A program made the position numbers and the translations under genes. Below the pieces are notes generated by a model. It searched no databases. It was given only the letters and a program-made list of their open reading frames with translations, and had not been told where the DNA came from. A stretch of 64,000 nucleotides of DNA from a virus (taxonomy: Duplodnaviria; Heunggongvirae; Uroviricota; Caudoviricetes): positions 10,261-74,260 of IMG/VR virus record IMGVR_UViG_3300005660_000003; one strand, written 5' to 3'. This document shows positions 7,726-60,606 of the stretch, in pieces (position 1 is the stretch's first letter; each line of letters starts with the position of its first letter).

Positions 7726-7756
7726 GGTGAACTCCTTTGTTTTAAATTAGGGGTGG

Positions 7757-7800: not shown

Positions 7801-7831
7801 CCGTATTTACTATAAATGAAATGAGAATTCA

Positions 7832-40963: not shown

Positions 40964-41237
40964 TAGCTTTTATTAAGCGATTAACTTTATTATTGTCTTT
41001 TAACGTTATTATACCTTTGACTACCTCTTCATATCCGTCTTCAATTAGAATTTCGTTTAGTATATCAAAGAGTTGATCATCTGTAGACATTAGGCTTATT
41101 GTGGCGATATATTGAACATCGGAGTATATTATTTCATCAGAACTAATAAGGATATAATCGTAAAGAGGATTGAATCTCTTGTACAATTTCAAAAGGAAGG
41201 TCGCTAGTTTGATTAATATACTTGATAGTATTTTCAT
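40941..41237 (-). CDS. hypothetical protein
   Basis: 98-aa ORF. Confidence 0.35.
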   Translation of the reverse strand: MKILSSILIKLATFLLKLYKRFNPLYDYILISSDEIIYSDVQYIATISLMSTDDQLFDILNEILIEDGYEEVVKGIITLKDNNKVNRLIKASEVYSNE

Positions 41238-41452
41238 TTATAAATCCTAAAGGGACAAAAGAAGAATAAAATATCGCAAGTTCCCCATCAATTATAGTAG
41301 TAGATACATGGCGGATATCAAGCCATTGATATACTAAATTATAATAGTCTTTTAAATAATTTGTTGTCTGTGTTATCAATGAAGAAGTGGAGTGTGCCAA
41401 AAAGTTTGGTAAAGTATTTTCTACATCATTATGACATATCATTTTAATTGAT

Positions 41453-42244
41453 TTATTCGTCATTACTTTTAACACTAAGTAAATTCGCACATTCATTTTT
41501 AAAGTACCCCTCTTTAAAAGAGTCTAAAAAATTACCCAATAATTCTAGTGGTTTTTTTCTAAATTGTTTGGGGGTTCTTGATATATTTGTTGCGTGCCAT
41601 AAGTATTTACACACTGGTAAGTTAATATATTTAAAATTTCCATAATCAGCAAAAGAAGAATATAATTCCCAGTCACATGCATTAATGGAAAAGTTTGGTT
41701 TTACATGATCGTACACTTCTGCTTTATATAAAAATTGCCCATTATCTATACCAACACTCTTTTTATGAGACTCATACTGAGGGCAGCTTACTGTTCGGTA
41801 ATAATGAAAATCTCCATTTGTATCTGCTGAATATTCTTCACGATCCCCATAAACTAATATGGTGCTGGCCTCTTTTAGCTCCTCTGAAATAATGAACTTC
41901 CTTTTCTTTGGCAAGCAGTCGTCGTCTGTATGGGATAGTATTGCCCCATTGGCGTAGGATATTCCTATATTCCTTGGTATCGTTACTGTGCCCGAATTAA
42001 TGTTTAACCTAACATACTGTATATTTGCCCAGTTTTTAGACAAAGAATTAAGTAAAGATACATTACTTGAGCTTGTAAATTCGTCTGAACCATCTTCTAC
42101 AACTATAATTTCTAGTTTTTTACCCAACTCACACTTAGCAAGTGAGTGCAGTGCTGCAGATAAAAAATTATGTCTATTATAAGTTGGAATTATCACGGTG
42201 ATAATATCCCTATCCAGTGATTCTATCCAAGTTTTTATTTCCAT
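41453..42244 (-). CDS. glycosyltransferase family 2
   Basis: N-terminal ITVIIPTYNRHNFL...VVEDGSDE (GT-A DxD). Confidence 0.7.
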   Translation of the reverse strand: MEIKTWIESLDRDIITVIIPTYNRHNFLSAALHSLAKCELGKKLEIIVVEDGSDEFTSSSNVSLLNSLSKNWANIQYVRLNINSGTVTIPRNIGISYANGAILSHTDDDCLPKKRKFIISEELKEASTILVYGDREEYSADTNGDFHYYRTVSCPQYESHKKSVGIDNGQFLYKAEVYDHVKPNFSINACDWELYSSFADYGNFKYINLPVCKYLWHATNISRTPKQFRKKPLELLGNFLDSFKEGYFKNECANLLSVKSNDE

Positions 42245-42247
42245 TTA

Positions 42248-42505
42248 TTAATTGCTCTCCCTAATTCTTTTTTCGTATTTTTCTTTTAGTATAACGCACA
42301 TTAAAATTACTGAGTGTCTCAAAAGACTATCTATTAACACTGGTGCGTCTGGTTCACCTAAAACTTGTACAGGGGTCAAATTACTTGATGACATCAAAAG
42401 CTCCTCCAAGTTTTCAATACTCATTTCATTAATTTTATTAAACAATTTACTTGAACACAACTCTTGTTTTATGTTGTCATAATTAATTATATTATGCATA
42501 TTCAT
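42248..42505 (-). CDS. hypothetical protein
   Basis: 85-aa ORF. Confidence 0.35.
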   Translation of the reverse strand: MNMHNIINYDNIKQELCSSKLFNKINEMSIENLEELLMSSSNLTPVQVLGEPDAPVLIDSLLRHSVILMCVILKEKYEKRIRESN

Positions 42506-43190
42506 CTATCCTTAGAAAGGTAAGAGTGTTACCCTCAACAAAGTTGCAAATTTTATCAAATTGATCGTAAATACTATTACCACAACTTAAGGAAGGGATC
42601 TGGGATGTGTGGCCATGCGACACTAGCGTGTCACTCTGAAGGGGATTTTCTAAGACGCCATAGGTATCCTTTAGGTTCCAATTGTAGTATACTACCGTAA
42701 TCTTATCTTTGTAAACCTCATTAAGTTTTTTAAAGTTAGTGTGTGAATAAATATGGGTGTAGCCCAAGTCACAAAGTGCGTCCATATTATGTTGGTTAAT
42801 GGTCCACTGAGGGGCCCTAAAAACCCTAACAAAAGGGAGCTTGGCAGCTCTAAAAATATTCTCAGAAAGTTTAATTTTATCAACGCTTTGTGTATAGTTG
42901 TAATATTTGTACTCTTCAGAAGAGTGATATGTGCCGTGTACACCTAAGCATACGTTTCCTGCGGAAATTAATGATCGTAACTTATCACACCAAGTTTTAT
43001 TAGCATAAAGAGGAACGTTGTTGTAGCACGGTGGAACAAAGAAATTAATGATTAAGTTTGGGAAAGTTTTAATTAATTCTTCAGCTACTGGTAGACAGTC
43101 TACATCTGGGTTGTGGTGTAGGTCATCAAACTCTAGTATTACCTTCAAGTGTTTTCTCCGTGTGCATATAAGTTTGAAAATTGCCCGCAA
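42492..43190 (-). CDS. hypothetical protein (possible carbohydrate esterase/deacetylase-like)
   Basis: 232-aa ORF with His-rich motifs. Assignment is weak. Confidence 0.3.
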   Translation of the reverse strand: MRAIFKLICTRRKHLKVILEFDDLHHNPDVDCLPVAEELIKTFPNLIINFFVPPCYNNVPLYANKTWCDKLRSLISAGNVCLGVHGTYHSSEEYKYYNYTQSVDKIKLSENIFRAAKLPFVRVFRAPQWTINQHNMDALCDLGYTHIYSHTNFKKLNEVYKDKITVVYYNWNLKDTYGVLENPLQSDTLVSHGHTSQIPSLSCGNSIYDQFDKICNFVEGNTLTFLRIDEYA

Positions 43191-43405
43191 GGAGAAAAGA
43201 TTTCAAAAAGTGTAACTTTGTTACACTTCCACCCTTTAGTTTCCTTGAGCAATGCTTCTTTGGATCGCTGATTATCTTTTGTGTCCAATGGAATAGTGTT
43301 AAATGACCAAGGAAATTTAGCAAATGATGTGAATAACTAACAGCACTTTGTGCCAGAATCTAAAAATTTAAATTTTTCATATGTTATAACTTTGTCTTTT
43401 CTTAA

Positions 43406-44149
43406 TTAAATCTTTATAAAAGGGTCTTCACCTTTTGGTAAGAGGTAGGAACCTAGTGGTATTGCATAAAACTTCTTCTTAACATATTCAAATCCTTCTA
43501 TTGTCCATTGTAAATAAGCTTCGTGATCATCACTGTAGTGTCCACAAGCGTAGGGATCATGACTCTCCACTAGAGCTATTACTCCAGTGTCCAATCTACC
43601 GAAGTCTACAGCTCCGCAGAAATCTTCTGGCCACGCAATATCCAGCTCTGGAGCTGGCTCCTCCTCGTCATCCCCATCATACCACCCAGTAGTTAAAACC
43701 TTACCATTGGAAACGTAATATCTCCATTCTTGGGTAAAGCTTACAGGGTCTACATAATAATTTATACCGTTTGGGCGTTTTTCACCCACTTTATAAATCC
43801 TAGAAACATTATGCTTGTAAGAGGTTGAATCTTTGATAAATACGTCGGTTGATATTGGTTTATCTTTTAACTCTGAAAAACCCTTACGATTTAAGTCAAT
43901 AATGTAAAAATGTCTAAACATTAGATGGCATAAAAATTCTGGGTAAAAATCTGGCACTGGCTTACTTATTCCCAGCCCGAGCAGGGCTGCTTCACAGTAT
44001 TCCACATCACCTATTGGTATACAGTTTTCTGTAAAGTCTTTCGGGTGCTTAACGCGCCACTCAAGATTCAAGGTTCTACAGGCTTGGGCGGCTTTAATTA
44101 CCTCTCGGCCATTGTAACCGGGCTGAAAACAAACAACGTAGTCGTTCAC
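43406..44149 (-). CDS. hypothetical protein
   Basis: 247-aa ORF. Confidence 0.45.
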   Translation of the reverse strand: MNDYVVCFQPGYNGREVIKAAQACRTLNLEWRVKHPKDFTENCIPIGDVEYCEAALLGLGISKPVPDFYPEFLCHLMFRHFYIIDLNRKGFSELKDKPISTDVFIKDSTSYKHNVSRIYKVGEKRPNGINYYVDPVSFTQEWRYYVSNGKVLTTGWYDGDDEEEPAPELDIAWPEDFCGAVDFGRLDTGVIALVESHDPYACGHYSDDHEAYLQWTIEGFEYVKKKFYAIPLGSYLLPKGEDPFIKI

Positions 44150-44613
44150 TTAAATTCCTTATAAAGTGCAGATACGGTAGCAAAGCCACCGCTCCAATCC
44201 CAAACATCTCTTACAAAACATTGAAACTCAGCGTGGGTTAGCTCTATAGTATCTCTTATATCCCAACTCATCATGTCGATTGCCGCATCATAATCATCTG
44301 AAAAATTATGAGGTACTTCAAGTTTAATACCAATTTGATCTACTAAGACTATATAACCACTAGTATTTTCTGGGGCGGCAGGATCAAAGGTTTCAATCTT
44401 TTTCATTGCTGCTTCGGCTCTCTCATCTAATCTAATGCTAGCTTTTTCATAAGCGTCCTTTAATCTTCCTTGAGCTACAACTTTATACCCCGTAAGGGCT
44501 TCTTCATATTCTGCAATATGCTTTACTTTATTAGCCTTAAGTTTTTCTAATAAGTCTTCTCGTTTTACTTCTACTACTCTTTTCTTTTGGTCATTCATTG
44601 CTTGTTGGGCCAA
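44146..44613 (-). CDS. hypothetical protein
   Basis: 155-aa ORF. Confidence 0.45.
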   Translation of the reverse strand: MAQQAMNDQKKRVVEVKREDLLEKLKANKVKHIAEYEEALTGYKVVAQGRLKDAYEKASIRLDERAEAAMKKIETFDPAAPENTSGYIVLVDQIGIKLEVPHNFSDDYDAAIDMMSWDIRDTIELTHAEFQCFVRDVWDWSGGFATVSALYKEFK

Positions 44614-44797
44614 GTGTGTGCTCCTTTTGCGGACTATTGTGTGGAATTAGTAAAATGTTTTTCTTCAGCCAATGCTAATAAATACGCTGCTTGAGCTACA
44701 TCTTTTGCAGCTTTAGCATAATGAGCAGAATTTTCTGCGGTAGATGCATTTCTAGACAAAGTAATTAATTTGTTTATTGCTTCATTGTATTCTTGGT

Positions 44798-45097
44798 TCA
44801 TTTATTTTCTCTATTATCTTTAAGTGATTCATACATTAAGAATTCTTCATATTCTTTTAATTCTCTTATGGTTTTCTTAAATTCTTTATACGATATTATT
44901 CCATCTGCCATGAGACTATTAATACGAAGTGCCATAAACTCAGGATATTTAATCTTATTTTCATTGAGTATTGATAATTCTGCTAGTGATATTTTCTGGT
45001 TTTCAACTATTGTTGGTAATTCAACAGTTGAATAATATAGTACGTAAATACTAAAAGAGGCAAGTAAAATACATGAAATTTTTTCTATAGTTTTCAA
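44798..45097 (-). CDS. membrane-anchored hypothetical protein
   Basis: 99 aa with an N-terminal TM segment. Confidence 0.4.
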   Translation of the reverse strand: MKTIEKISCILLASFSIYVLYYSTVELPTIVENQKISLAELSILNENKIKYPEFMALRINSLMADGIISYKEFKKTIRELKEYEEFLMYESLKDNRENK

Positions 45098-45339
45098 GTT
45101 ATTTTCTCCAATATATTAAAGTCACTTACGTTAAAATAAGTGGGGTCATAAAACCAATTTGCTTCTATAGTTTCTAGGCGGAAGTTGTTATACTTAAAAA
45201 CTATTCTATATTTTCCTGCGGCCTTTTTACGTAATATTTCATCTGGAATATTGTCAGCGGCAGATATGTAAACACCTACTATATCCCCCTCAAAAAGAGG
45301 TTCACCATTTCTATCTTTGCAATACGTATCTCTGTTCAT
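45094..45339 (-). CDS. hypothetical protein
   Basis: 81-aa ORF. Confidence 0.35.
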   Translation of the reverse strand: MNRDTYCKDRNGEPLFEGDIVGVYISAADNIPDEILRKKAAGKYRIVFKYNNFRLETIEANWFYDPTYFNVSDFNILEKIT

Positions 45340-45538
45340 TAAAGTCTTCTAAAGATACCATCTCAAAGAAACAGCCCTTAACGCTGCCCATCCTATCAAA
45401 ATCATTCATAATAAAACCAGTTAATACAAGTGGGAACTTAAGTGGTTTAATTAAATCTGCAAATTTAATATCGCTCTTAATTATATCTCTATCTTCATCT
45501 TCCCATTTCTCAAGCTCTTCTTCTAATTCTAGGCCCAT
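45311..45538 (-). CDS. hypothetical protein
   Basis: 75-aa ORF. Confidence 0.3.
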   Translation of the reverse strand: MGLELEEELEKWEDEDRDIIKSDIKFADLIKPLKFPLVLTGFIMNDFDRMGSVKGCFFEMVSLEDFNEQRYVLQR

Positions 45539-45802
45539 CCCTTCAAATATATCATGGATATTATTACCATAAAGAGCATCTCTTAATTCGATATATTTAT
45601 CTGCATAATTTTTCCTACATTCCTGATAAAAATCAAATGAAACCTTTACTTCTTCTGGCCATGTATCATATCTATTTATATTTTTAGACCATTGAAACCA
45701 CGGCTCTAATTGGGCCCTATCCTCTTCTTTCTTCTAAAACTAAAGGTTAAAGTCGCATTTCATGCGAGTAATTCATTCAATCTTCTTCTTCGCTCAATCT
45801 TT

Positions 45803-46384
45803 TTAGTTGAGTTCATACACCACATCCTCTGGGCCAAAATAGGTACGTTTATATCCTATTTCTTCCAATTTGCTAACCACTGCCGCAAATTCTTCAGGGC
45901 TTATATGGATGTGCTCAAATTGTATCTTCTTTATTGTTAGTCCAGTAAAATCACACCCCAATAAAACCTTAGCGTCATAACCTTCAGTGTCAATTTGTAA
46001 TATGTCCACTACTGACTCGTGGAAAAACTCATGGAGCGGATAACAAGTGACTCGGCGAGTCGATATTACTTGATCAGAATGACCGAGCTTATGTAGGTGG
46101 GACCTGTTCATAGATGCGTGTTGAGATCCTTCGTTTCCGGGAACGTCATTATCAATGAAAAGATCTAACTCTTCATGCGTGTCAGATATGCCGCAACAAA
46201 AAACAACAACATTAGTGAATCCAGCAACTCTGTAATTTTCTCTACAGATTTCTACAGCTTTTGGATTTGGTTCAATTAGATCAATTTTCCAATCTAAAGA
46301 GGCAGGCATGTTTTCTTGACATAGTTTCCAAACGGGATCATTGTCTGTATTACCTTTATTTGCACCAACTTGTATAATATGCAC
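45803..46384 (-). CDS. FkbM-family-like methyltransferase
   Basis: HIIQVGANKGNTDNDP...IDLIEPNP resembles the FkbM MTase N-terminal motif. Confidence 0.45.
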   Translation of the reverse strand: MHIIQVGANKGNTDNDPVWKLCQENMPASLDWKIDLIEPNPKAVEICRENYRVAGFTNVVVFCCGISDTHEELDLFIDNDVPGNEGSQHASMNRSHLHKLGHSDQVISTRRVTCYPLHEFFHESVVDILQIDTEGYDAKVLLGCDFTGLTIKKIQFEHIHISPEEFAAVVSKLEEIGYKRTYFGPEDVVYELN

Positions 46385-46396
46385 TGCGTGGCTCCC

Positions 46397-46606
46397 TTAA
46401 TTTTTTGTAAATTTTTTACTAATCCATTCTATCGTATCGTATAAAATTAGACCATACCTAATATTGTATCCATAATATATTAACATCCATAGTAAAAGTC
46501 CCGGCCAAAACCAAGGTAAAATTAATGTTGTACTTGCATCATTGATGTCAAAAAATATTAACACAAGAAACACAATAATAGCCATGTAAATTAGTACGTA
46601 TATCAT
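46397..46606 (-). CDS. small membrane protein
   Basis: 69 aa with two TM segments. Confidence 0.4.
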   Translation of the reverse strand: MIYVLIYMAIIVFLVLIFFDINDASTTLILPWFWPGLLLWMLIYYGYNIRYGLILYDTIEWISKKFTKN

Positions 46607-46616
46607 TATATATTTT

Positions 46617-47303
46617 CTAAACTAAAAAATCACCAAGTAATTTGCCGGGTATTAAAAATTTGGTGTGGGACTCTTTGTTTTTATCATTTAGATAAGACAA
46701 ATGATCTATGCCAGTTCCATAATGCATGGCAAAAAAGTCCCTTTTCTTTACTGCTGGGTAAAAATATTCCATTTCTTGCCACTCGGTGTCTTTCCTAGAT
46801 AATGGGCGTGGCCAATCATCTAATACTAATTCTTTTCTTATGCAAAAGTAAGAAGATTTTATAACAAAGGTATACTTCTTACCAAAGCCAATGTGCGGGC
46901 AAATTAATCCAATGGACTTATTCCCCTGAAACATATCGTTATATTCTTTTAGCCAGCCACCTCTTTTAGAAACCGCCATTTCTGCTATGAAAAAATAATA
47001 TTGATAATCACTCTTTAATACTTCTAAGTAACCTGCTCTATATGCTCCAATATCTTCACCGACATTTTGTCTTTCAAAGTATTTTATATTACTATATCTT
47101 TTGTCTAGGGCAATTCCCATTTTAGAAATGGTGTCAATTTCTTCCCGACTTCTTGATCTTCTATTTTGTATGTTTGTTTCAAACTTATTGTGAATTATAA
47201 ATATGTCGTGATCAAAACCTAAGTCAAAACTAAGTAAAGATTTAAGACATCGAGATACTCTATTGTAGTGAAAAGCTGGAACTATTAAACAAAATTTATT
47301 CAA
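46617..47303 (-). CDS. putative glycosyltransferase (GT-A-like)
   Basis: N-terminus CLIVPAFHYNRVSRCLKSL resembles the GT2 start. Confidence 0.4.
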   Translation of the reverse strand: MNKFCLIVPAFHYNRVSRCLKSLLSFDLGFDHDIFIIHNKFETNIQNRRSRSREEIDTISKMGIALDKRYSNIKYFERQNVGEDIGAYRAGYLEVLKSDYQYYFFIAEMAVSKRGGWLKEYNDMFQGNKSIGLICPHIGFGKKYTFVIKSSYFCIRKELVLDDWPRPLSRKDTEWQEMEYFYPAVKKRDFFAMHYGTGIDHLSYLNDKNKESHTKFLIPGKLLGDFLV

Positions 47304-47310
47304 GGTGATC

Positions 47311-47856
47311 TCATTTTTTTCTTAGTAAGCAGGAAGTATTTGCGTCTGTAGAAATGATTTTAACAATTTCGAAATCGAATCCAAATAAGTAAGTGAAAGC
47401 ATCCTTACTTAATCTCCAGTAGTCTCCAAAGCTTCCTGCTTCCCCATGATAATCTGGTGCCTTGGGACCCCAAGGTGAATCGACTATAACATATCCACCC
47501 CTATTTAATAAAGCATCAAAAGCTTCTGATAGCTCAGTAATGTGTGGTATATGTTCTATTACTTGAGTGATGTGGATTAGGTCGTAAGTAATTCCATTAG
47601 ACCAGTCGGTTGGTTCTACAATATTCCCAACAATATCTGGCTCCCATTTTTTATCAAAATCTAAAGTGGTTAGTGTATACCTACTAAATAGACGGGGATT
47701 GTCTAAGCCCGGCTTACCTTTATGGGTTCGCGGATTACCAGCGGTCCCTACCATTAACATGGTAGGATTTAATAAAGTTACATTGTTTAGATTGATAATA
47801 GCGGCAAAATCCGCTTCAGCGGCTTCGCAGTCTTGTCTCGTTTGGCTTTTACTCAT
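47311..47856 (-). CDS. putative methyltransferase-like protein
   Basis: 181-aa ORF. Weak class I MTase-like features. Confidence 0.35.
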   Translation of the reverse strand: MSKSQTRQDCEAAEADFAAIINLNNVTLLNPTMLMVGTAGNPRTHKGKPGLDNPRLFSRYTLTTLDFDKKWEPDIVGNIVEPTDWSNGITYDLIHITQVIEHIPHITELSEAFDALLNRGGYVIVDSPWGPKAPDYHGEAGSFGDYWRLSKDAFTYLFGFDFEIVKIISTDANTSCLLRKK

Positions 47857-48425
47857 TTATATATTTTTCCCCAGATTTCTGAACAATGTCTATATTTTTC
47901 TATTAGGCAATATTTATATCCAATGTTATCTAGTATTTTAATCAATTGTTCTTTATCTTTTATTGGTGATGTGTGGGAAGGGTTATATTTTTCAACCTCT
48001 TCTTTTGTTTCACCAATTGGCACAATAAAGAATAAGACTTTACGAACAACATTAATAAGAGTTTTCAGGGCCACTTCTAGGTCTAGGGCGTGTTCTAAAG
48101 TATGAGAACAAAATATATAATCAATGGATCCTTCTTCAAATTCACACAGTGTATGAAAATCTGAATTCAAAACTATGTGTCCACGCTCCTTAGCCTTGGC
48201 CAACTTTTCATCTGATAAATCTACACCAATTATATTGATAAATCCCATATCTTTGAGAGCATCTAAACCTCTACCTTCACCACATCCCACGTCTAATACG
48301 TGGGCTTCACGATCTATATCTTTGAAGGTTTCTCGTATTGCGGCTTCTATTGAGTCTCCCCAAGGTGATCCATATGACCAAGCAGATCCAGACACTTGGA
48401 TATCTATGTATTCTTTATCTAACAA
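47853..48425 (-). CDS. class I SAM-dependent methyltransferase
   Basis: [11 protein letters not shown]...GVDLS...[10 protein letters not shown] (Methyltransf_11-like). Confidence 0.7.
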
Positions 48426-48711
48426 GGTGATTCCTTATTCCATTGAGGGTATTAAAATTAACAAGGAAAATAGAAAATTTAAGAGAAAAGGTATGACTTG
48501 GGAAAACCGTGGAAAGGGCGGCTGGCATATTGATCATGTTCTTCCGTATGCAAGTTTCGATCTTTCAGACCCTGAACAACAGAAGATTTGTTTCCATTAC
48601 ACAAACCTACAACCATTATGGGCTACTACCGCGATTGCAATGAGCTACGGGGAAGGGTCAGAATATGTTGGAAACATTGAAAATCTGATAAACCCTATCC
48701 TCTTAATTTAA
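48406..48711 (+). pseudogene. HNH endonuclease remnant (HNH domain only)
   Basis: [46 protein letters not shown] with no N-terminal DNA-binding modules. The ORF-track frame overlaps the opposite-strand MTase. Confidence 0.5.
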
Positions 48712-49504
48712 AATAATCTTTATACCTTAAAGTTTGCGAAAGCGTGCCCTCGTTATGCTCAACGTAAATAGCTGTATCTAAATAATACATAGGGATGCTA
48801 TTATGTTGAGCGTACGTAGACAAATCCCCATCCTCTGTGCCAGAAATTCTACCACTTTTATCTAGATCGTTTGGAAATGTAAACCCTTCATAAATTTCTC
48901 TACGGGCAAATCTACATATTCCACCGACATGATGTACCCTGCGTAACTGGTAATATGAATCATTTTCTTCGTCATGTATAGAGGAGTGAGCATACCCCTT
49001 AACACCACAAAGATTATTCTGTAAGCCCCCAACCATTGGTGCCCAAATACTTTTACCCAACACGCTATCAAGAAACATACAATGACTAAAGAAATCCTTG
49101 CTAATAATCTTGCAGTCATCGTCAAACTTAAGGGTTAATTTTCCGGACAAATGCGGGACAATATAATTTATTCCCGCCCCTATGCCAATATTTTGTGGTA
49201 ATTCGTGGGCAATTACGTCAAAGTTCTTAAGCCCTAGGTCATATAGATTATTTTTGCAACCTTGGAAAATGACGTGATGTTCAATTGTAATGGGGTTTTC
49301 AGTGTGGATTGACAACATTTCTGCTTCATAGGTGGCTTGCCCAACCGAAGACACGCAGTCTCGTAAGTACTTATCCCGCCCGCCCAAAGTCATTGTAAAG
49401 ATAGATATATCCAAATTACCTTTTCCTTTTTCCAAGTTTCTCGTATGGGATTGTATGATGACATTCTCTACTATGTTGATAACAGTGGTCTCCACAAGAA
49501 TCAT
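48695..49504 (-). CDS. hypothetical protein (possibly glycan-modifying)
   Basis: 269-aa ORF in the glycosyltransferase island. Confidence 0.4.
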
Positions 49505-49751
49505 TCCAGTACCTTATACTAGAAGATCCGCAGTATAAACAAAGTCTACCAACAACCTTATATAGATTTGCAAATATAATTTCATCTAACTCTTGTTGGG
49601 TAAATAAAGAGTATGATTTTGCCCGCACATCTGATGCCGTTATCATCTCAAAAACCGCAGAAGTCATGTCGTCAGATTTGGGTGAATTTGGATATAAATA
49701 TTTACTATTCAAGTCTTTATCCCTTATCCAAAACCTTATCACACGCAACAC
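49416..49751 (-). CDS. Cys/His-rich hypothetical protein
   Basis: 111 aa. CxxC...C..HC...H..ECHH. Confidence 0.35.
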   Translation of the reverse strand: MLRVIRFWIRDKDLNSKYLYPNSPKSDDMTSAVFEMITASDVRAKSYSLFTQQELDEIIFANLYKVVGRLCLYCGSSSIRYWNDSCGDHCYQHSRECHHTIPYEKLGKRKR

Positions 49752-49877
49752 AAAACTCTACCCAATCACCATTTATCCCAAAAATCAACTCTTTATCTTT
49801 TTCTATATACTGGTAGGATGCCAGCCTAATGATTTGTTTTATTTGAGCACACCTTCTAGCTATGCTCACTTCGTGAT

Positions 49878-50117
49878 TCAAGATTGTATCCTTTTTGTTG
49901 ATTTATCAACAGCTTCAAAACAATCTGCCTCGTGGAGTTCTCCAGTAATACTAACTAACCATCGATTAGTTAAAGCTGACCATACTATGTTATCTATCGT
50001 ATAATTATGACCAGCGATACACTTACAATTCCCATTTTCTATTCCATTTATGCATACTTCTATCGCATCCTTTATACAAAATATCTTTTCACCTATACCA
50101 AAGGGCTGAGATTGCAT
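49878..50117 (-). CDS. hypothetical protein
   Basis: 79-aa ORF. Confidence 0.3.
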   Translation of the reverse strand: MQSQPFGIGEKIFCIKDAIEVCINGIENGNCKCIAGHNYTIDNIVWSALTNRWLVSITGELHEADCFEAVDKSTKRIQS

Positions 50118-50422
50118 TAAAACACCACCCCTAATTTTTCTAATTCTTCCTTATTCTCTTTGACTTTTTCGTTATTTATTCTTCTTTTCTGGTTGATTAT
50201 GGTAACTATTGTTGGGCACCCAATTTGTATTAGAGCGGGACAAATAAAGGATATGGACGAAACCTGAAGAAATGATTTACTGATAATACATGAAATAAAG
50301 AAAAAACAAATTTGTAAAAGGGTTATATTAAACCACGCTTCATATAAATCTATTTCTAATTTAGGCTTTGGCAAGCTGTAAGAATAGCATTTTAATGGAA
50401 GTGGATGGTAAGGATTATGCAT
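50117..50422 (-). CDS. hypothetical membrane protein
   Basis: 101-aa ORF. Confidence 0.3.
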   Translation of the reverse strand: MHNPYHPLPLKCYSYSLPKPKLEIDLYEAWFNITLLQICFFFISCIISKSFLQVSSISFICPALIQIGCPTIVTIINQKRRINNEKVKENKEELEKLGVVF

Positions 50423-50611
50423 ACAATATGATCTCTATAAAACACACTGGAACATTTTTAGAAAAAGGTGTAGCTGAAGCCACATAGATCACTTCTATCG
50501 AAGAATCTTGTTCACAAGTATCAGTAGAAATGTATACAAAATATTTATTCTCTTGTAGCCAAACCCCATAAATTGACACGGTCAGCATCAAATTTCGTGC
50601 AAGTGCGGGGT

Positions 50612-51319
50612 TCATACCCCGCTCCAATCAACAAAAGGAGATAGGAAGGGCTCATGGCAATGTGTTGAGGCACCCAACATGGGAGTAAAAAGCACTACGT
50701 GATTCTTACGAAGAAAACGAAACAATTCCCTATCTTGTAGCCCAAAAGACTTCGCTAACTTATACACCTTATCTAGATACAACCCTTGGGAAATTGCCCA
50801 CGTACAAGTGGTGCTTTCGGCAGTTCTCCAATATTTAAGATTTCCAAGTCTAATTAAAGTTTGGTGAAAATCTATGTCGTCGGTTCTTAGTAGTCTATCT
50901 AAATGATCATAAAGACTTATAACATTATCTTTATTTATGGCGTCAGCCACCTCAAATCCCTCTTTAAGTACTGCAAATGCGTCGTCAGTATGTAGGTAAT
51001 CATCTTCAACAAAATAAATAACATCTGTTTGTGGCAATTTTGCGGCAAAGTCTAAGCAATACTGAAGAGATCCGGCGTTAGAATTCAAATTTATTTTTTC
51101 AATATTAATGTCACAAAAATCTAGATGGGTATGCAGTTGTCCTTTTTCACCGTCGTGAACAGCAGTAAGAATAATTTCATCTTCTTTTGTAATTCCTTGT
51201 GGGTCATATTTAAAAACACCCAGTAAATTATCTAAACACTTTAGCTTAGAGAACCACCTTGGTCTAGCGTCCAGCTTTGTATCTAGTTCGCAACACCTGT
51301 AAATTACGTGTAGTTTCAT
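50612..51319 (-). CDS. hypothetical protein (possible GT-A glycosyltransferase, EDDY motif)
   Basis: 235-aa ORF. Confidence 0.35.
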   Translation of the reverse strand: MKLHVIYRCCELDTKLDARPRWFSKLKCLDNLLGVFKYDPQGITKEDEIILTAVHDGEKGQLHTHLDFCDINIEKINLNSNAGSLQYCLDFAAKLPQTDVIYFVEDDYLHTDDAFAVLKEGFEVADAINKDNVISLYDHLDRLLRTDDIDFHQTLIRLGNLKYWRTAESTTCTWAISQGLYLDKVYKLAKSFGLQDRELFRFLRKNHVVLFTPMLGASTHCHEPFLSPFVDWSGV

Positions 51320-51634
51320 ATAAATGTTTTACTTTTTTCCTGTGTTAAGTTCATTAATAAACAAAATTAAGATAAAACCGAAAATAAATAAATTTAAAAA
51401 TGGTATTAAACACCAAATTGATCCCCAGAAAGCGTTTGATACTGACGGATAATCTTTTATAAATGAATTATATATTTCGCCCAAAGACAATGCTGCGAAC
51501 GAGATAAGTAATGATACAAATTTCTATACTCATATTGGTAGCCCTACAGTTATTTTTTTAAATCATTCAAGCCATTCCTTAAACTTTGGTATGTAGTGGG
51601 CGGGTACATTGATATTGTAGGTGATCTACTACGT

Positions 51635-51979
51635 TCATTTTAATTCCAACTTAATCTTTACTTTTGCCTTAATCTTTTTAACAAAAATGTGATTATTAAA
51701 AGATTCTAGGTCATTTCCGCTCTCAACTGACATTCTATATGTAGAATTCTCTTCATCATACCACAAAGATACAGGAAACTCATTACAGCCACACCCAATA
51801 AAGTACGTAGGATTCGGGTCGTCTTCTCTTTGTGTATTAACCATTTGGAAAATAGTTCCCTGTTTTGCCCCATACATTTGCATTGGGCGAAGCAACTTTA
51901 TCTTTTTATCACTATCTTCTTTTTTTACTATTTTAATTTTCAAAATTATTTCTCCTAAGGTGTGTAAGCTCTTGCCCAC
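51635..51979 (-). CDS. hypothetical protein
   Basis: 114-aa ORF. Confidence 0.4.
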   Translation of the reverse strand: MGKSLHTLGEIILKIKIVKKEDSDKKIKLLRPMQMYGAKQGTIFQMVNTQREDDPNPTYFIGCGCNEFPVSLWYDEENSTYRMSVESGNDLESFNNHIFVKKIKAKVKIKLELK

Positions 51980-52081
51980 TTAATAAGTTCTCGTCCAGAA
52001 ACTTCTTTCTCTTTCATGTGTGAAAAAGTGGGGTAGGTTATTACAAATTTCTTTCTACTCAACTTTTCTACTTTACAACCT

Positions 52082-52333
52082 CTATCCTGTAGTATCTTCA
52101 TAGCTTTCTTGGTTTTCAAAGTCTGCACTCCCTACGTAGTGGGCACCAACAATTTCCGTTAAAGCTTCTATGCTGTAATTTATACTGGCGTTTGCACAAA
52201 GTAACACCTCCATATCTTTATTAAAATCTCTAAACACAGCGATATCTAGCCTAGACTTATTAAGGCTATCTTGTATTTGTTGGATTTCTTTGTTTGAATA
52301 ATCGGCAGTGTCTACAATGATTGAACGCCTCAT
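52082..52333 (-). CDS. hypothetical protein
   Basis: 83-aa ORF with a 4-nt overlap. Confidence 0.35.
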   Translation of the reverse strand: MRRSIIVDTADYSNKEIQQIQDSLNKSRLDIAVFRDFNKDMEVLLCANASINYSIEALTEIVGAHYVGSADFENQESYEDTTG

Positions 52334-53040
52334 GAAAATAGCTCCTTGTGCTTTTCGTCTATATATGCCATTGCTGAAAAATTAAAACTACCGTGGAACA
52401 TAAAAGATTTATAAGTACTTAGATCCCCATATTCATGAGGATCTTCTTTAATTGGACGCTCCACACTAAATCTACGGGCTAATTCAATACTAGGAAATTT
52501 AATACCCTTATTATTTTCTAAAAACTTTCTTGCTGTGACAGAAATAAACCAGTCTTCATTACTTATTATAAATCCACTCTGAGGTATTAAATCAGCCATT
52601 TGGGATGAGGCTTCTAGTAGCTTTTTTGATCGCAGACAAGCACCACCGTTAAAACCCGTGTGTTCATTATCCCAACAGGCCCCAATGTAATCATACAACA
52701 AGAACTCCTCAATCCAAAGATCTGGATTTATTATACAAGAATCCCATTGTTGAACTAGGCAAAAATCCGTATCAATAAAGTTAACAAGGTGTTTTAAAAT
52801 CCAATAAGAATAGGTCCCGTCGGCTTTGTATTCTGCCCATTTAATTACGGGATGGGTAAACTCTTGCGGACATATGATGAGGGCTTTTTCAAAAGAAAAG
52901 GACGCGAGCGACACCTCCATAGCCTTTATGGTTTGCTCTAAAAAATCTTGCGTATGGATTATTGATACTAGTGTTATTAATTTAGAAGGCATTCTACTCC
53001 TCCTCCTCGTCGTTGTCCTCTTCCTCTTCTTCGGTCTCAA
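52330..53040 (-). CDS. hypothetical protein
   Basis: 236-aa ORF. Confidence 0.45.
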   Translation of the reverse strand: MRPKKRKRTTTRRRSRMPSKLITLVSIIHTQDFLEQTIKAMEVSLASFSFEKALIICPQEFTHPVIKWAEYKADGTYSYWILKHLVNFIDTDFCLVQQWDSCIINPDLWIEEFLLYDYIGACWDNEHTGFNGGACLRSKKLLEASSQMADLIPQSGFIISNEDWFISVTARKFLENNKGIKFPSIELARRFSVERPIKEDPHEYGDLSTYKSFMFHGSFNFSAMAYIDEKHKELFS

Positions 53041-53347
53041 AATTATCTAGATCGCATACAAAATTGAGATTTGTCATACGAACAAACTCCTGCAATAAAT
53101 CATACATCTTATTGTGCTTATCGCTAGTGTAAAAATTAAGGCGTCCATTATAATTTGTTAAGGATTGCTGACTTAGACCTCTTTCACCATTAATAAGTTC
53201 TTGGAAAATAAAAGGTGAGTTACTTATATCATTTATTATTTCAATAGCTATTTGAAATGCTTCTAGTAGTGACTCCTTAGTATTCATGGTCACTAATTCG
53301 GCAAATCTTTTTGATAAATCTACAGTTTCTTTGTTTGCTATGATCAA
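52994..53347 (-). CDS. hypothetical protein with poly-Glu/Asp C-terminal tail
   Basis: 117 aa ending EEEEEDNDEEEE. Confidence 0.4.
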   Translation of the reverse strand: MIIANKETVDLSKRFAELVTMNTKESLLEAFQIAIEIINDISNSPFIFQELINGERGLSQQSLTNYNGRLNFYTSDKHNKMYDLLQEFVRMTNLNFVCDLDNFETEEEEEDNDEEEE

Positions 53348-54366
53348 GAGAGTAATTCCTTAAAAATGCGTGCTGTATTTTCCCAAGAGAACATCTTTGA
53401 AATTTGTATTCCTGTAATATTAACCTTATAGCCATTCTTATAGGAGGCTCTAAGGGCTTCAACAAGGTGATTTATGTCGAAGACGCCCCAATTTCCTTGT
53501 CCGAAAAACCACTTGTCATCAAATGCAGGTGTAAGACTAGTAACAGGAATAAGCGTCGAGTTATGTCCATTACAAAATTCTGTGTGCCCAGCATAGTCAG
53601 TAACAATTACTTCCTTGCCACACGCCATCATTTCTAAGGTTTCTAATCCCCACCCCTCAGCTTTAGAAGGGAAAACGCCGCAACTAACAGTGTTCATTAT
53701 TCGGGCTAAATCTTGCTGGGTTTTAAATGGGCCAACAAACTTTATCTTTTTAGCCTTACCCATTGGGGTATTCATGTATTTGTATCTAATACGGCCCATG
53801 AATTCTGTATCATGGAAAATGTTATTCATAGACATCCATAGCTCAACATTGTCCGTAGGTTTAAACGCAAGATTAAAAGCTTCTACTATTTCATCCTGAG
53901 ATTTTCTTATTTCCCACTTACCAGCAGAAAAGAAGATGTGTACATTTGGTGTGTGTTCTACCTCGTGAAATATATCGCGATCAACACCAAGTGGAACCAC
54001 TTTAACAGGAGTAGTAATACCGTTGTTTTTTACAACCCCTTTTGCCCACTCAGTACACACCCATATCTCATCAACACTAGATAGGTGGGCTTTTTCAATA
54101 TTGTTAAACGTATCTAATTCAAAAATGGTATAACCTATACGTTTATTTTTGCCCACCATCATAAGGTCAAACTGATGGAATAATCTAACTGTTGGTAAAG
54201 ATAGATCGTAAGGTTTGCTTCCTATGAATTTGTTAGTAATAGATTGCGGCAATCCGAAGGATGGTTGCCCTATTGGTATAATATTACAATCTAAATGTTT
54301 TGCAATATTTAGGGCAACCAATCCATATGAAGTTATATTACTTATAGGAGCGTTAAAATTAAACAA
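53344..54366 (-). CDS. glycosyltransferase family 1 (GT-B)
   Basis: EGWGLETLEMMACGKEVIVTD matches the GT1/GT4 E-x7-E motif. Confidence 0.7.
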   Translation of the reverse strand: MFNFNAPISNITSYGLVALNIAKHLDCNIIPIGQPSFGLPQSITNKFIGSKPYDLSLPTVRLFHQFDLMMVGKNKRIGYTIFELDTFNNIEKAHLSSVDEIWVCTEWAKGVVKNNGITTPVKVVPLGVDRDIFHEVEHTPNVHIFFSAGKWEIRKSQDEIVEAFNLAFKPTDNVELWMSMNNIFHDTEFMGRIRYKYMNTPMGKAKKIKFVGPFKTQQDLARIMNTVSCGVFPSKAEGWGLETLEMMACGKEVIVTDYAGHTEFCNGHNSTLIPVTSLTPAFDDKWFFGQGNWGVFDINHLVEALRASYKNGYKVNITGIQISKMFSWENTARIFKELLS

Positions 54367-54754
54367 GGTCTAAACTTGCTAGACGACTTTGCAGGTCGTT
54401 AATTTTTCTTGCTCTAGCTGGCAACATAGCATTAATAACCTCTCTTATTTTTATTGCCTCTGGAGATTTACCGCCTTCTTGTGACCAAATTTCTTTTGTT
54501 CTAGCATCGGTTGTGCTAAATTTTTGTTTGGTAAGGTGATTCCTTAATGGATGAAGTACGTCGTTTCTAAATTTTTGTGACGCAACAAGATCCTTCTTTT
54601 CATCTTCATCGGTGTATCCTAAATACTTCCTGCAGTCTAATAGAGTACCCGCTGAACTCTTTGCCACTTCTCTTACAAACTTAATCTTTCGAAGATCTGC
54701 GTCTGTAACAGATACACAAACAGTTTCAAAAATTTCTTTCAATTTGTCATTCAT
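54359..54754 (-). CDS. hypothetical protein
   Basis: 131-aa ORF. Confidence 0.4.
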   Translation of the reverse strand: MNDKLKEIFETVCVSVTDADLRKIKFVREVAKSSAGTLLDCRKYLGYTDEDEKKDLVASQKFRNDVLHPLRNHLTKQKFSTTDARTKEIWSQEGGKSPEAIKIREVINAMLPARARKINDLQSRLASLDLV

Positions 54755-55355
54755 CTTTTAATTTTCCTTTATAAACAAAAGAGTTTTTATTGTATGACCA
54801 GACACAATTTTCTGGATCATATAAATAATCTGCTTCAAGATAATACCCATTTTTATCTACTATTGGGCAACAACAACCGTTTTCTAATTTGTAGTTTGGG
54901 GTCATTTTTTTACACAACACACAAGGCTTAAGATCAGTTTCTTCATCTTCTGGGTGCCAATATCCACTATCACTATACTCAGATATTACACTATGCAGTA
55001 TTTGGGGAAAGATGGGAAGTGTTTTACTGTTGTGTAATGTACTGTATAAACCCCCTGTGCAAAATTTATTGTAGCACTCACCACTAAATCTAACTGAACA
55101 ACCAATATCAACATTGGGGTGGTGATAATTAAAGTAAAGACGTAACTCGTGTGAAGGTTCTACTAACATTCTTGGTTTTTCAAAACTGAAAAAACGATCA
55201 CAACTTGACTCACCATCTTCATCTTCATCTTTTGTGGCTACACAGGTTATTGGTTTAAATTCATATAGAGTGTAATTATTATTACTCTGCTTAATCTTCC
55301 TAGGTTTTTTTAACAATACATCCAACATAAAATTCCCCAAAAGGTATATTAACAC
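54747..55355 (-). CDS. Cys-rich hypothetical protein immediately downstream of the E1-like gene
   Basis: 202 aa with multiple Cys clusters (CVLCKK...GCCCP). Confidence 0.4.
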   Translation of the reverse strand: MLIYLLGNFMLDVLLKKPRKIKQSNNNYTLYEFKPITCVATKDEDEDGESSCDRFFSFEKPRMLVEPSHELRLYFNYHHPNVDIGCSVRFSGECYNKFCTGGLYSTLHNSKTLPIFPQILHSVISEYSDSGYWHPEDEETDLKPCVLCKKMTPNYKLENGCCCPIVDKNGYYLEADYLYDPENCVWSYNKNSFVYKGKLKDE

Positions 55356-55441: not shown

Positions 55442-56164
55442 TTACTTCTGTTCGTTGTTATTGTTACAGTTACCAAAGTACTCATCTGGGTTCTCCGGAG
55501 ATAAAACAGAATTAATAGAACAAAAACTCAACATCCTGTGAACGGGCCAACCTTTTCCACCCATCAAATTGGCGAATTGATTAACGCTGGTCCCAGCTGC
55601 AATGTTGGCTATATAGTTACTCATTGGTTGAACGCACCCAAAACTTGCTGATTCACTTGATGGGAAAATGGTTTTGAGATACCAATCATTAGTAGTCTCC
55701 ATGTCTTTTACAGTAAGAATTTGAGCAACAGAAGCCCCGATTCTAACATCAAAGAAATATTTGCACTTATCCCTGTAGTAGTTATACAGGAGTTTCCTTA
55801 TATCAATGTTGTCTACGGTACTCCATACTGCGTCATAGGTGGTGTTTTTCCCCACTATTCTAGGGGCCCATTTATTAGGGTAAGCACTTACTTTAATGGC
55901 TTCGCCCATTTGGGAAACAATTTCTTCAGCTAGAACTTCTACCTTTGTCTTGCCACAATCACCCTGTGACCAATTCTGAGGAATTATATTGTGCGCTTCT
56001 ACAATGTCATTATCAACTAAATCAATAGACTTGACTCCAAGTCTAGCTACACAACTCGCTACGTTTCTACCTATAGCCCCACATCCGACAATTAAGACCC
56101 GTACTTCTTCTAGGTTTTTAGCAGGGCAGAAGTACTCTTGGCGAGAATAGAAAGCCGCGCTCAT
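55442..56164 (-). CDS. E1-like (ThiF/MoeB/UBA superfamily) adenylating enzyme
   Basis: Rossmann motif VLIVGCGAIGRNVASCVARLGVKSIDLVDNDIVE. 4-nt overlap with the JAB gene. Confidence 0.7.
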   Translation of the reverse strand: MSAAFYSRQEYFCPAKNLEEVRVLIVGCGAIGRNVASCVARLGVKSIDLVDNDIVEAHNIIPQNWSQGDCGKTKVEVLAEEIVSQMGEAIKVSAYPNKWAPRIVGKNTTYDAVWSTVDNIDIRKLLYNYYRDKCKYFFDVRIGASVAQILTVKDMETTNDWYLKTIFPSSESASFGCVQPMSNYIANIAAGTSVNQFANLMGGKGWPVHRMLSFCSINSVLSPENPDEYFGNCNNNNEQK

Positions 56165-57285
56165 TTGAAATCTCCTGTATTAATTTTACTTGCTGTATCT
56201 TTAAATTGTGGATACTTTAATCCCGCTGTATTAATGGCTTTTACTCTGTCAAGTTTATTATTACTTTTATAGGCTATCTGGAAATCTTTTTCTAACAAAT
56301 CCCCGTGTATAGCTCCGAGAATAACAGATATTCCATCCATTGGATTATAAGGGTTGTCAAACTCAAATATTCTTTCCATGCTCTGCAAGGATGTAATATC
56401 CTCTATGTCTGCGAATGCAGCTTTCATTCTTTGTAGCTCGTTGTCAGTCATCACCCTAAATGATTCTCGGTGCTCTCCTAACTCGAGTAGCATTTCTGGG
56501 ATTATTTCCGGGGACGCACTTTTTTTAAAACTATTTTTAGCGGGTTGGTAATGACTATGGTTTCCACCATATCCTTGATACCCGCTTCTTATTACTGTGT
56601 AAGTATCTGGGCTAACTAATTTGTCATATTCAGTAATCAGTTCGTTAAATTCTGGGAAAATTTCAATTAGTGAAACATGTGGGAGGAGTGACTTCTTAGC
56701 TTTTTCCATACCCAATTTATCTACAGCCCTTTCCCCAAAAATATTTTTTAAACCTGTTAAAATTTTAGCATCGTATCCTTCATCTTTAATAATTTCAACA
56801 GGTATCTCTTTTTCTACTTCATACGGATGATCTAGCCCGTTTACTGATGTGCTAAGATTACCTCTAACTCTCAGTTTACAGGTAATTTGTCCTGTCTTTG
56901 ACAGGATCATCATTACCATAAAATTTTTCATAGCGTTATCTTGGTCGTTCCAAGTGCTCATATCTTTACCAGAGGGATTAGCTGAACTATCTCCAGTCAT
57001 TGGGTGAGTATGACACCAAACTCTTTCACAGTTAATAGGTGGTATTCCCGCCATAGCGTTAGTTTCTATATATTCCGCCATATACTCGGGGCAACAATCG
57101 GAACTAGTTGAATTTACTTTTTGTTTTACGATCCTGAAATCATAAACATGAAGTGGGTTTTCTTTGTGGGTGATTCCAAACATTGTAATTTCTGAGTCTT
57201 TGTGGTCTCTCATAAATACAAACTTATCAAATGCATACGCATCAATTTTAAGTGTAAGTTCTTTTTTGGGTGTAGTTGTGTTCAT
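56161..57285 (-). CDS. JAB/JAMM (MPN+) metallopeptidase with C-terminal extension (deconjugating/processing enzyme)
   Basis: E...HTHPMTGDSSANPSGKD fits E-x(n)-H-x-H-x(10)-S-x2-D. Confidence 0.65.
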   Translation of the reverse strand: MNTTTPKKELTLKIDAYAFDKFVFMRDHKDSEITMFGITHKENPLHVYDFRIVKQKVNSTSSDCCPEYMAEYIETNAMAGIPPINCERVWCHTHPMTGDSSANPSGKDMSTWNDQDNAMKNFMVMMILSKTGQITCKLRVRGNLSTSVNGLDHPYEVEKEIPVEIIKDEGYDAKILTGLKNIFGERAVDKLGMEKAKKSLLPHVSLIEIFPEFNELITEYDKLVSPDTYTVIRSGYQGYGGNHSHYQPAKNSFKKSASPEIIPEMLLELGEHRESFRVMTDNELQRMKAAFADIEDITSLQSMERIFEFDNPYNPMDGISVILGAIHGDLLEKDFQIAYKSNNKLDRVKAINTAGLKYPQFKDTASKINTGDFK

Positions 57286-59061: not shown

Positions 59062-59221
59062 GAGATTACTCCGTAAGAAAATTTTTAAATAATTAAAGTA
59101 GGTGGAGCGTTTCCACGAAGATGGTTATTGTTCCGAGTATAAAGTTTGCGCAAGTATTACAAACAAAGTAAAAGGGGTGGAATTAAATTCCACCCCTTTA
59201 TCCTTAAGCGGTCAGACTATT

Positions 59222-59437: not shown

Positions 59438-59528
59438 GTGATTACTCCAACTAAAAAACCAAAAAGATGTGGGTGGCCAACATTAACCACCCACTGAAAA
59501 CTAATCTCGGACTTTCGTCCTTCAAATA

Positions 59529-59942: not shown

Positions 59943-60010
59943 AAAACTTCCCTTTGCAAAGGAAACTATAAAATGGGAGCAACTACATATTACCCCCGGT
60001 AAACTACACA

Positions 60011-60583: not shown

Positions 60584-60606
60584 AAAAACTTTCTAAGAAA
60601 AGGGTG

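Follow-up and report, generated by a model that had tools for sequence, protein, structure and literature searches.

The stretch of DNA analysed here (the window) comprises 64,000 nucleotides of IMG/VR virus record IMGVR_UViG_3300005660_000003 and derives from a large uncultured tailed phage with a GC content of ~35%. Judged by gene content and gene order, the 13-kb region at positions 41453–54366 is an expanded copy of a conserved six-gene phage cassette. The core of the cassette encodes, in this order, a DUF5672 protein, a GT-A glycosyltransferase (GT) with a GnT-I/GT13-like fold, a divergent GT2-like GT-A enzyme, a 181-aa methyltransferase (MTase), a CE4/DUF2334-like deacetylase, and a GT2-family enzyme. 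The whole region is predicted from its sequence to encode five or six GTs, two or three MTases, and one sugar deacetylase, and it very probably specifies a conserved pathway of glycan assembly and tailoring.

The six-gene order is kept in six independent metagenomic contigs (L015, L017, L018, L025, L026, and L028) at 29–63% amino-acid identity, the relatives being contigs located through the GT2-like family. Because gene order is conserved in six independent contigs, the clustering goes beyond chance. A compact form of the cassette is found in L028, a 203-kb contig in which the six genes are contiguous over ~3.7 kb as overlapping or abutting ORFs; directly after the cassette come genes for a GDP-mannose 4,6-dehydratase (4.9e-105; six genes and dehydratase gene together at L028 8327–13381) and then for a DnaB-like helicase, a primase, and a PD-(D/E)XK nuclease. 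The fixed order in six contigs, together with this direct contiguity, argues for a functional unit. In the window, the core is stretched to 13 kb, and a GT4 gene pair and a second MTase gene are added. The GT4 gene and its 131-aa neighbor move as a pair, which lies upstream of the DUF5672 gene in the window, L015, and L017 and downstream of the GT2 gene in L025 and the P0005 contig; the 131-aa gene adjoins the GT4 gene in L015, L017, and L025, even where the latter sits at the opposite end of the cassette. Insertions without counterpart in the related loci comprise an ATP-grasp gene and its partner, the gene for a 228-aa protein, and ~15 small ORFs. Also inserted are FkbM, which varies between relatives, and the HNH-like fragment. 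In the relatives, variable slots are occupied by TylF, up to four Methyltransf_24, GNAT, and epimerase/dehydratase genes, plus unrelated RNA ligase, PTH2, and HD genes. The IMG/VR loci found through GT4 (L007–L012) share no other cassette gene, with the exception of DUF5672 in L012, and GT4 alone is therefore a poor marker of the cassette.

The initial annotation had described the region as an island, and in the sense of acquisition this term does not hold. The GC content of the region (0.33–0.38) equals that of the rest of the window, so that it is not a compositional island. Cassette proteins are 45–63% identical to those of L015 and L017, which is in the range of the neighboring JAB gene (48–50%; the E1 gene reaches 71–73%) and therefore speaks for lineage-wide retention, not sporadic acquisition. 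An acquired island was ruled out on these grounds, that is, by GC composition and by synteny across the relatives. All credible genes of the region lie on the minus strand, and ~89% of the sequence is coding.

The GT assignments draw on profile scores, conserved motifs, and one structural model. The GT2 enzyme scores 59.9 bits for PF00535 (gathering cut-off 23.3) and has a DDD motif at residue 107; its closest solved relatives in the PDB are chondroitin synthase, TarS, and GalT1. Its position is kept in L015, L017, L018, L025, L026, L027, and L028 at 26–54% identity (43–54% in the four closest). The GT2-like enzyme has no Pfam match of its own and found no match in a tblastn search against cultured phages. 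It has 29 homologues, several of which carry PF00535 (these are 41–49% identical to it), an invariant D128-D-D130 in 16 sequences, and a conserved position in seven loci. The GT4 enzyme exceeds the cut-offs of both of its Pfam families (46.7 bits vs 27 and 41.3 bits vs 26.4), carries an E-x7-E motif (EGWGLETLE) at residue 237, and is 61–62% identical in L015 and L017. The signal in the 228-aa protein, possibly a further GT-A-like enzyme judged by its relatives, is faint at most; the protein belongs to a small family (27 representatives among 1.84 billion proteins) and has no Pfam match of its own, no PDB match, and no counterpart in the related loci.

The GT13-like protein matches no Pfam family even at E ≤ 10 and represents a family with >350 homologues, members of which occur on phage contigs as long as 405 kb. 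An alignment-based AlphaFold2 (AF2) model of the protein (predicted local distance difference test score, pLDDT, 95.1) adopts a GT-A fold, and a Foldseek search of the PDB with this model places GnT-I first (2e-7, 13% identity, template modeling score 0.60), followed by POMGnT1, LH3, SpsA, and TarS/TarP. Residues E105-D106-D107 are invariant in the family and match the GnT-I EDD motif. The protein is thus a GT-A enzyme by its modeled fold and not a member of GT13 by sequence. In BFVD, the fold is found in freshwater Caudovirales, in Synechococcus phage S-SRM01, and in giant-virus GT-A proteins. Comparison by hhalign of the GT13-like family with DUF5672 and with the GT2-like family gave no signal, and PDB profile searches returned nothing significant for the proteins designated A1, A2, A3, A4, and A7. 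A Kyte-Doolittle scan finds no transmembrane segment in any of the cassette enzymes.

Two MTases are solid. The FkbM enzyme scores 69.5 bits (Pfam cut-off 22.7) and, for TIGR01444, 56.5 bits (cut-off 37.7), and among the related loci it occurs only in L025 (48% identity); the Methyltransf_11 enzyme scores 61.6 bits (cut-off 21.2) and is present in L017 and L018. The 181-aa protein of the core is a probable third. It has the conserved motifs VGxAG, LDFD, DIVG, and QVIEHIP, with VGTAG in place of GxGxG, and its position is kept in five loci at 40–63% identity. The initial annotation had proposed a dense run of GT-A and GT-B enzymes, at least three S-adenosylmethionine (SAM)-dependent MTases, and many small ORFs of no assigned function. 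The dense run is borne out, with GT2 and GT4 above curated cut-offs and a second GT2 and the GT13-like enzyme found in addition, and the many small ORFs indeed lack family matches; of the three MTases, two stand, whereas the third is borderline (27.5 bits; cut-off 27.0). Profile support, the absence of which had been named as the outcome that would overturn the GT and MTase calls, was found for GT2, GT4, FkbM, and Methyltransf_11, all of which pass their cut-offs. Since these calls pass and further glycan enzymes are present (the deacetylase, DUF5672, and two GTs), the proposed capability to build or modify a polysaccharide or to glycosylate virion proteins is reasonable.

For the deacetylase, a PF10096 match is recorded for an identical 218-aa product, whereas our own scan gave only PF01522 (0.011; 16.2 bits vs a cut-off of 23.1), and PDB profile matches to chitin and polysaccharide deacetylases were not significant. 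The ORF would reach position 43190 if started from TTG. The motif set of CE4/NodB enzymes is (T)FDD, H(S/T)xxH, and RxPY. The protein has FDD (residue 7), HGTYH (residue 71), and RxPxW (residue 111; RAPQW here, RGPYW or RGPHW in relatives), all invariant in four homologues. The DUF5672 protein keeps its position in the relatives, and glycan contexts surround the family in every case found, including cyanophage S-B05, where an annotated glycan cluster extends on both sides of the homologue. A single-sequence AF2 model of it was unusable (pLDDT 34), and a literature search on DUF5672/PF18922 yielded nothing useful.

Table 1. Coordinates of the glycan cassette, its accessory genes, and neighboring features in the window.
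Feature	Positions	Strand	Evidence or remark
GT2-family GT-A glycosyltransferase, 263 aa	41453–42244	−	PF00535 3.8e-16; core cassette member
CE4/DUF2334-like carbohydrate deacetylase, 218 aa	42492–43148	−	NodB-type motifs; core cassette member
R2K-clade ATP-grasp, predicted amide/peptide ligase	43406–44149	−	PF18299 4.7e-15; strain-specific accessory
155-aa protein	44146–44613	−	phrog_34511 6e-21; 4-nt overlap with ATP-grasp gene
Small predicted membrane protein	44798–45097
FkbM-family SAM methyltransferase	45803–46384	−	PF05050 4.9e-19; variable accessory gene
Hydrophobic small ORF, 69 aa, predicted membrane protein	46397–46606	−	Kyte-Doolittle scan
228-aa protein, small family, possibly GT-A-like	46617–47303	−	1 of 19 relatives matches Glyco_tranf_2_5 (0.0034)
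Probable class-I methyltransferase, 181 aa	47311–47856	−	PF13489 27.5 bits vs cut-off 27.0; core cassette member
Methyltransf_11-type SAM methyltransferase, 190 aa	47853–48425	−	PF08241 1.2e-16; DVGCGEG motif
Cut-down copy of multi-copy HNH-like family, 101 aa	48406–48711	+	C-terminal module; opposite strand, between two cassette genes
Divergent GT2-like GT-A glycosyltransferase, 269 aa	48695–49504	−	Homologues with PF00535; core cassette member
Small predicted membrane protein	50117–50422
GT-A glycosyltransferase by modeled fold (GnT-I/GT13-like), family without Pfam model, 235 aa	50612–51319	−	AF2 model; core cassette member
Small predicted membrane protein	51329–51490
DUF5672 protein	52330–52992	−	PF18922 4.6e-17; core cassette member
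GT4-family GT-B glycosyltransferase, 340 aa	53344–54366	−	PF13692 5e-12, PF00534 1.6e-10, phrog_2170 5e-24
131-aa protein, travels with GT4 gene	54359–54754	−	8-nt overlap with GT4 gene; no family match
ThiF/E1 gene	55442–56164	−	PF00899 3.8e-26; abuts glycan region
JAMM-like protein	56161–57285	−	HTH-x10-SGKD; no Pfam match
Paralogous Cys-rich genes, weak RING-like matches	58174–59061, 57282–58196	−	Just downstream of 71-aa ORF
Full-length HNH-like copies, 230–272 aa	3441–4250, 5501–6319, 7832–8524	+	Cys-rich and Lys-rich N-terminal regions
Second short HNH-like copy	17401–17592	+	Shared C-terminal module

As a whole, the locus is tentatively best explained as a set of cytoplasmic enzymes that builds a short methylated glycan destined for virion proteins. 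The soluble enzymes would act in the cytoplasm of the infected cell on host nucleotide sugars and SAM, and four to five glycosyl transfers would give a short hetero-oligosaccharide, which would next be de-N-acetylated at an N-acetyl-hexosamine and O-methylated on its outer sugars. Strain-specific extras would vary the decoration, FkbM in this phage and TylF or Methyltransf_24, GNAT, and GDP-mannose dehydratase/epimerase in relatives. Cytoplasmic assembly is the simplest model because the enzymes lack transmembrane segments and because neither the window nor its flanks show a gene for a flippase, a polymerase, an initiating phosphoglycosyltransferase, or nucleotide-sugar synthesis.

By analogy with other viruses, the acceptor may be the phage's own structural proteins, so that the glycan would form a coat on the virion; we regard this target as possible and as the likeliest of those considered. 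In the experimentally resolved cases known to us, the product of such soluble sets of several GTs with MTases in lytic viruses sits on virion proteins: on capsid proteins in chloroviruses and, reportedly, on capsid or tail proteins in mycobacteriophages. A virion target is also suggested by the GT13-like enzyme, whose foremost matches by fold, GnT-I, POMGnT1, and LH3, are transferases of protein glycans, and by the best cultured-phage match of the GT4 enzyme. This match is a single domain in a multi-domain protein (1226 aa; annotated “methyltransferase FkbM”) of Microcystis phage Mel-JY01, and the gene of that protein lies two genes downstream of that of a structural protein. Retention of the cassette with fixed content would fit a constant, self-encoded acceptor and a variable outer decoration. 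A precedent for virion glycosylation by phage-encoded GTs is reported by Freeman et al. 2023 (cited in PMC12582341 and PMC12619734). Several observations weigh against a virion target. The window contains no structural genes, and hence no acceptor with a glycosylation-prone tail is at hand; the cassette lies among replication and nucleotide-metabolism genes and not in a morphogenesis module. Solubility does not discriminate, because peripheral cytoplasmic GTs that act on undecaprenyl-linked host glycans are also free of transmembrane segments. By profile score, both the 181-aa MTase and the deacetylase are borderline, DUF5672 is an uncharacterized family, the GT4 enzyme weakly matches “GT4-conflict” (0.00083), a family tied to cell-surface modification, and the cyanophage clusters with DUF5672 and GT13-like homologues are attributed to host surface modification (PMC7824862, PMC12801897).

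The last of these points leads to a close rival of virion proteins as the acceptor, namely a glycan of the host envelope. The enzymes would then work at the inner membrane face on undecaprenyl-linked O-antigen, capsule, or other envelope intermediates, and host flippases would export the altered glycan, with the effect that superinfection is blocked or that progeny are not lost to cell debris. Multi-GT clusters of cyanomyoviruses and jumbo phages are usually interpreted as serving such remodeling (PMC7824862, section 3.4.10; PMC12801897), and in these clusters DUF5672 and the GT13-like family occur beside epimerases, DegT, GT10, GT11, GT25, and GT47. An envelope acceptor would agree with the resemblance of the GT2 enzyme to extracellular-polysaccharide, colanic-acid, and teichuronic-acid GTs in NCBIfam, with the weak GT4-conflict match, and with the four small membrane ORFs in the region. 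These ORFs, however, are not conserved in the relatives, and the window shows no GtrA-, Wzx-, or Wzy-like protein, no membrane-anchored GT, and no integrase or lysogeny gene. Host-surface clusters are, moreover, described as sporadic and polymorphic between related phages (PMC7824862), whereas this cassette keeps its content and order at 29–42% identity. We therefore consider an envelope acceptor somewhat unlikely. It is quite improbable that the genes form no single pathway. The region would then be a hyperplastic stretch that collects unrelated accessory genes, and some of the GTs or MTases might have host proteins, small molecules, or RNA as their substrates. The interleaving of RNA ligase, PTH2, HD, and GNAT genes with the cassette in relatives would be expected from such a stretch, as would the presence in the window of a homing-endonuclease fragment, many orphan ORFs, a Methyltransf_11 enzyme with generic matches only, and an R2K ATP-grasp of a family predicted to modify proteins by ligating amino acids onto them (PMC4431377). 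Such a stretch would not explain why the relative order of six enzymes is the same in six contigs, why their genes stand contiguously beside a GDP-mannose dehydratase gene in L028, or why, in BFVD, some GT13-like domains are fused to MTase or cytidylyltransferase domains.

In a further alternative, the GTs would glycosylate a hydroxylated pyrimidine of the phage DNA (5-hydroxymethylcytosine, 5-hydroxymethyluracil, or 5-hydroxycytosine) and so evade restriction. Phage GT-A and GT-B enzymes akin to teichoic-acid and lipopolysaccharide (LPS) GTs put up to three sugars on DNA (Pyle et al.; Lee et al.), the Foldseek matches of the GT13-like enzyme include TarP and TarS, and the cassette stands beside replication genes in several contigs. 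In the precomputed Pfam calls for the 64-kb window and ~8 kb of flanks (roughly −6 to +66 kb), however, there is no TET/JBP dioxygenase, C5-cytosine MTase, or ThyA-type hydroxymethylase/hydroxylase; the genome exceeds the window, and distant partner genes are possible, whereas Pyle et al. describe such pathways as usually clustered. The presence of genes for ThyX, dCMP deaminase, and ribonucleotide reductase (RNR) indicates ordinary dTMP. Five GTs combined with sugar methylation and deacetylation also exceed any DNA glycan known to us, and the GT13-like enzyme matches GnT-I and POMGnT1 best by fold, T4 beta-GT and JGT-like protein being absent among the 50 matches listed. Modification of DNA is accordingly very improbable.

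In terms of known systems, the region is a member of an established class, the glycan gene clusters of large aquatic phages, and its annotation is in this sense well supported and unsurprising. As in the glycan or “LPS” clusters of large aquatic T4-like phages (P-SSM2, S-SCSM2R, S-B05, and uncultured freshwater Caudovirales), several GT families are combined with O-MTases, and DUF5672 and the GT13-like family are common to both. The window differs in that it has no gene for a nucleoside-diphosphate-sugar epimerase/dehydratase, nucleotidyltransferase, aminotransferase, or sugar kinase, although the relatives L018 (epimerase/dehydratase) and L028 (Gmd) have one such sugar-synthesis gene each, and in that a six-gene core of fixed order takes the place of a polymorphic set. 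The initial comparison to LPS-modification cassettes of marine myoviruses is thus apt with respect to DUF5672 and the GT13-like family and fails with respect to nucleotide-sugar synthesis.

Soluble GT2/GT4-type enzymes encoded outside the structural module, some with an O-MTase, are also found in mycobacteriophages (Che8, Corndog, and Myrna) and in Streptomyces BE-cluster phages, as here, and it is a system of this makeup, soluble GTs with an O-MTase in some phages and encoded outside the structural module, that reportedly glycosylates the mycobacteriophage virion. Weak homologues of the GT4 enzyme (24–27% identity) are annotated as glycosyltransferases in 64 Streptomyces phages, and an R2K.2 ATP-grasp occurs in Myrna as well (PMC4431377). 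Unlike these phages, the window phage probably has a Gram-negative Bacteroidota host. Chloroviruses and giant viruses (e.g., the GT and MTase proteins of PBCV-1; see PMC9614988) use cytoplasmic GT-A enzymes and sugar MTases to make methylated glycans independently of the host; this is an analogy, as these viruses infect eukaryotes and their genes show no relationship to those of the window at the level of sequence. DNA hypermodification clusters (T4 alpha/beta-GT; 5mYOX- or ThyS-associated GTs) resemble the region in having GT-A and GT-B enzymes drawn from cell-envelope GTs and in lying near replication genes, whereas their defining TET/5mYOX or ThyA homologue is not found here and the window has many more tailoring enzymes. 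The GT2 enzyme weakly matches GtrB-like PHROGs families (1.9e-5) of GtrABC seroconversion modules, but no GtrA flippase, no GtrC, no transmembrane domains on the GT2 enzyme, and no lysogeny genes were seen. The region is neither a Gtr-type seroconversion module nor a DNA-glycosylation cluster.

Large aquatic phages often carry glycan clusters of several enzymes. To our knowledge, actinophages, T-even phages, and giant viruses are the only cases in which the target of such a cluster has been demonstrated. The present locus defines a compact recurrent core of six genes that includes two uncharacterized families, the GT13-like GT-A enzymes and DUF5672, and this core is small enough for heterologous reconstitution, so that the question of the target is directly testable; the compact cassette of L028 is a good template for synthetic reconstitution. 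If the acceptor were a virion protein, self-glycosylation by phages would extend, as far as is known, to phages of Gram-negative, probably Bacteroidota, hosts.

A Gram-negative Bacteroidota host is probable from two weak hints in the sequence comparisons: the filing of one identical protein under a Chitinophagaceae metagenome-assembled genome in NCBI, and the closest cultured-phage relatives of the E1 gene, which are Flavobacterium and Bacteroides phages. The “moraphage” lineage (PMC12619734), to which the window phage may belong, has four core GT orthogroups and Bacteroidota hosts. Proteins identical to those of the window are encoded by 17–19 metagenome contigs of up to ~118 kb. A megablast search of 41000–55000 against 50,697 phage records gave no DNA-level match, the window genes tested against cultured phages never exceeded ~37% identity, and tblastn matches of the DNA ligase, all at ≤37% identity, did not place the lineage.

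Beyond the region, the window encodes class I RNR, ThyX, dCMP deaminase, an ATP-dependent DNA ligase, PNKP, an RNA ligase, a NAPRTase, and two tRNAs, and genes for a UvsX-like RecA and for PhoH lie directly outside its left edge. Within the region, many small ORFs have no family match. The NCBIfam scan returned, with the exception of the FkbM domain, only sub-threshold generic matches, and PADLOC returned only matches to methyltransferase domains (mad2, Type II MTase; best 1.8e-9) and no sign of a defence system. The R2K ATP-grasp gene and its 155-aa partner have no counterpart in any related locus; these two genes, the small ORFs, and the HNH-like fragment are strain-specific, and a role for them in glycan synthesis is not demonstrable. 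Predicted promoters (74 vs 78 in shuffled sequence) and terminators (13 vs 10) were not above the shuffled control, and TATAAATA is present twice, about as expected by chance.

The HNH remnant proposed at 48.4 kb is indeed a remnant, although its assignment to HNH finds no Pfam match. The 101-aa ORF retains only the C-terminal 64-aa module “GMTWEN..GWHIDH..P..NLQPLW..GN(L/I)E” of a family whose five plus-strand copies in the window share 70–75% identity over these 64 residues. Neither this ORF nor its full-length paralogues match a Pfam HNH family, the only match being to phrog_28061, of unknown function. The pattern H-x-D-H ... N-L-Q-P-L-W ... G-N looks HNH-like by eye, and the name thus depends on the motif. 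The five copies resemble a homing-endonuclease family spreading between minus-strand genes. In L015 (6639–8142), the GT13-like gene is split over two frames (7457–7579 and 7600–8139) and appears frameshifted, and a 238-aa HNH-like copy lies on the opposite strand directly upstream of it; either damage associated with the endonuclease or a frameshift introduced in assembly may account for the split.

The region abuts a ubiquitin-like (Ubl) operon, as initially noted, through the adjoining ThiF/E1 gene. A 71-aa ThiS/MoaD-like ORF at 59222–59437 (minus strand) ends in ...GKVDAG and by its sequence is probably the Ubl protein of this operon; it lies in a locally GC-rich patch flanked by hairpins at 59171–59199 and 59469–59494, and the two hairpins at ~59.2–59.5 kb are the sole convincing ones in the terminator scan. 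An overlapping gene chain runs from the 71-aa ORF through the two RING-like genes, the JAMM-like gene, the E1 gene, two small genes, GT4, and the gene of a 117-aa acidic-tailed protein to DUF5672. The gene order from Ubl to DUF5672 is the same in L015 and L017, whereas the other cassette-bearing contigs lack E1 and JAB. A single protein-modification machine, in which the two systems would act on one virion or host protein and give it both a Ubl tag and glycans, is extremely improbable.

Upstream of the Ubl operon, a NAPRTase-family gene (~60000–61500, minus strand; L013 4638–5558) occurs with genes for an AAA ATPase and an RNA-ligase-like protein; it could serve an NAD-salvage counter-defence function, and in the sister contig L014 it is split or shortened. 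The gene for the RNR large subunit (24513–27719, minus strand) is interrupted in its alpha-subunit sequence by a LAGLIDADG intein. A 661-aa protein (36788–38773, plus strand) has weak helicase-like PHROGs matches as well as intein-splicing and Hint domain matches, and its gene is adjoined by a homing endonuclease gene (35728–36798; 354–356 aa). In ThyX (12339–13016, minus strand; PF02511), the signature position reads RKH...SGRY, in place of the canonical RHR...SGRY.

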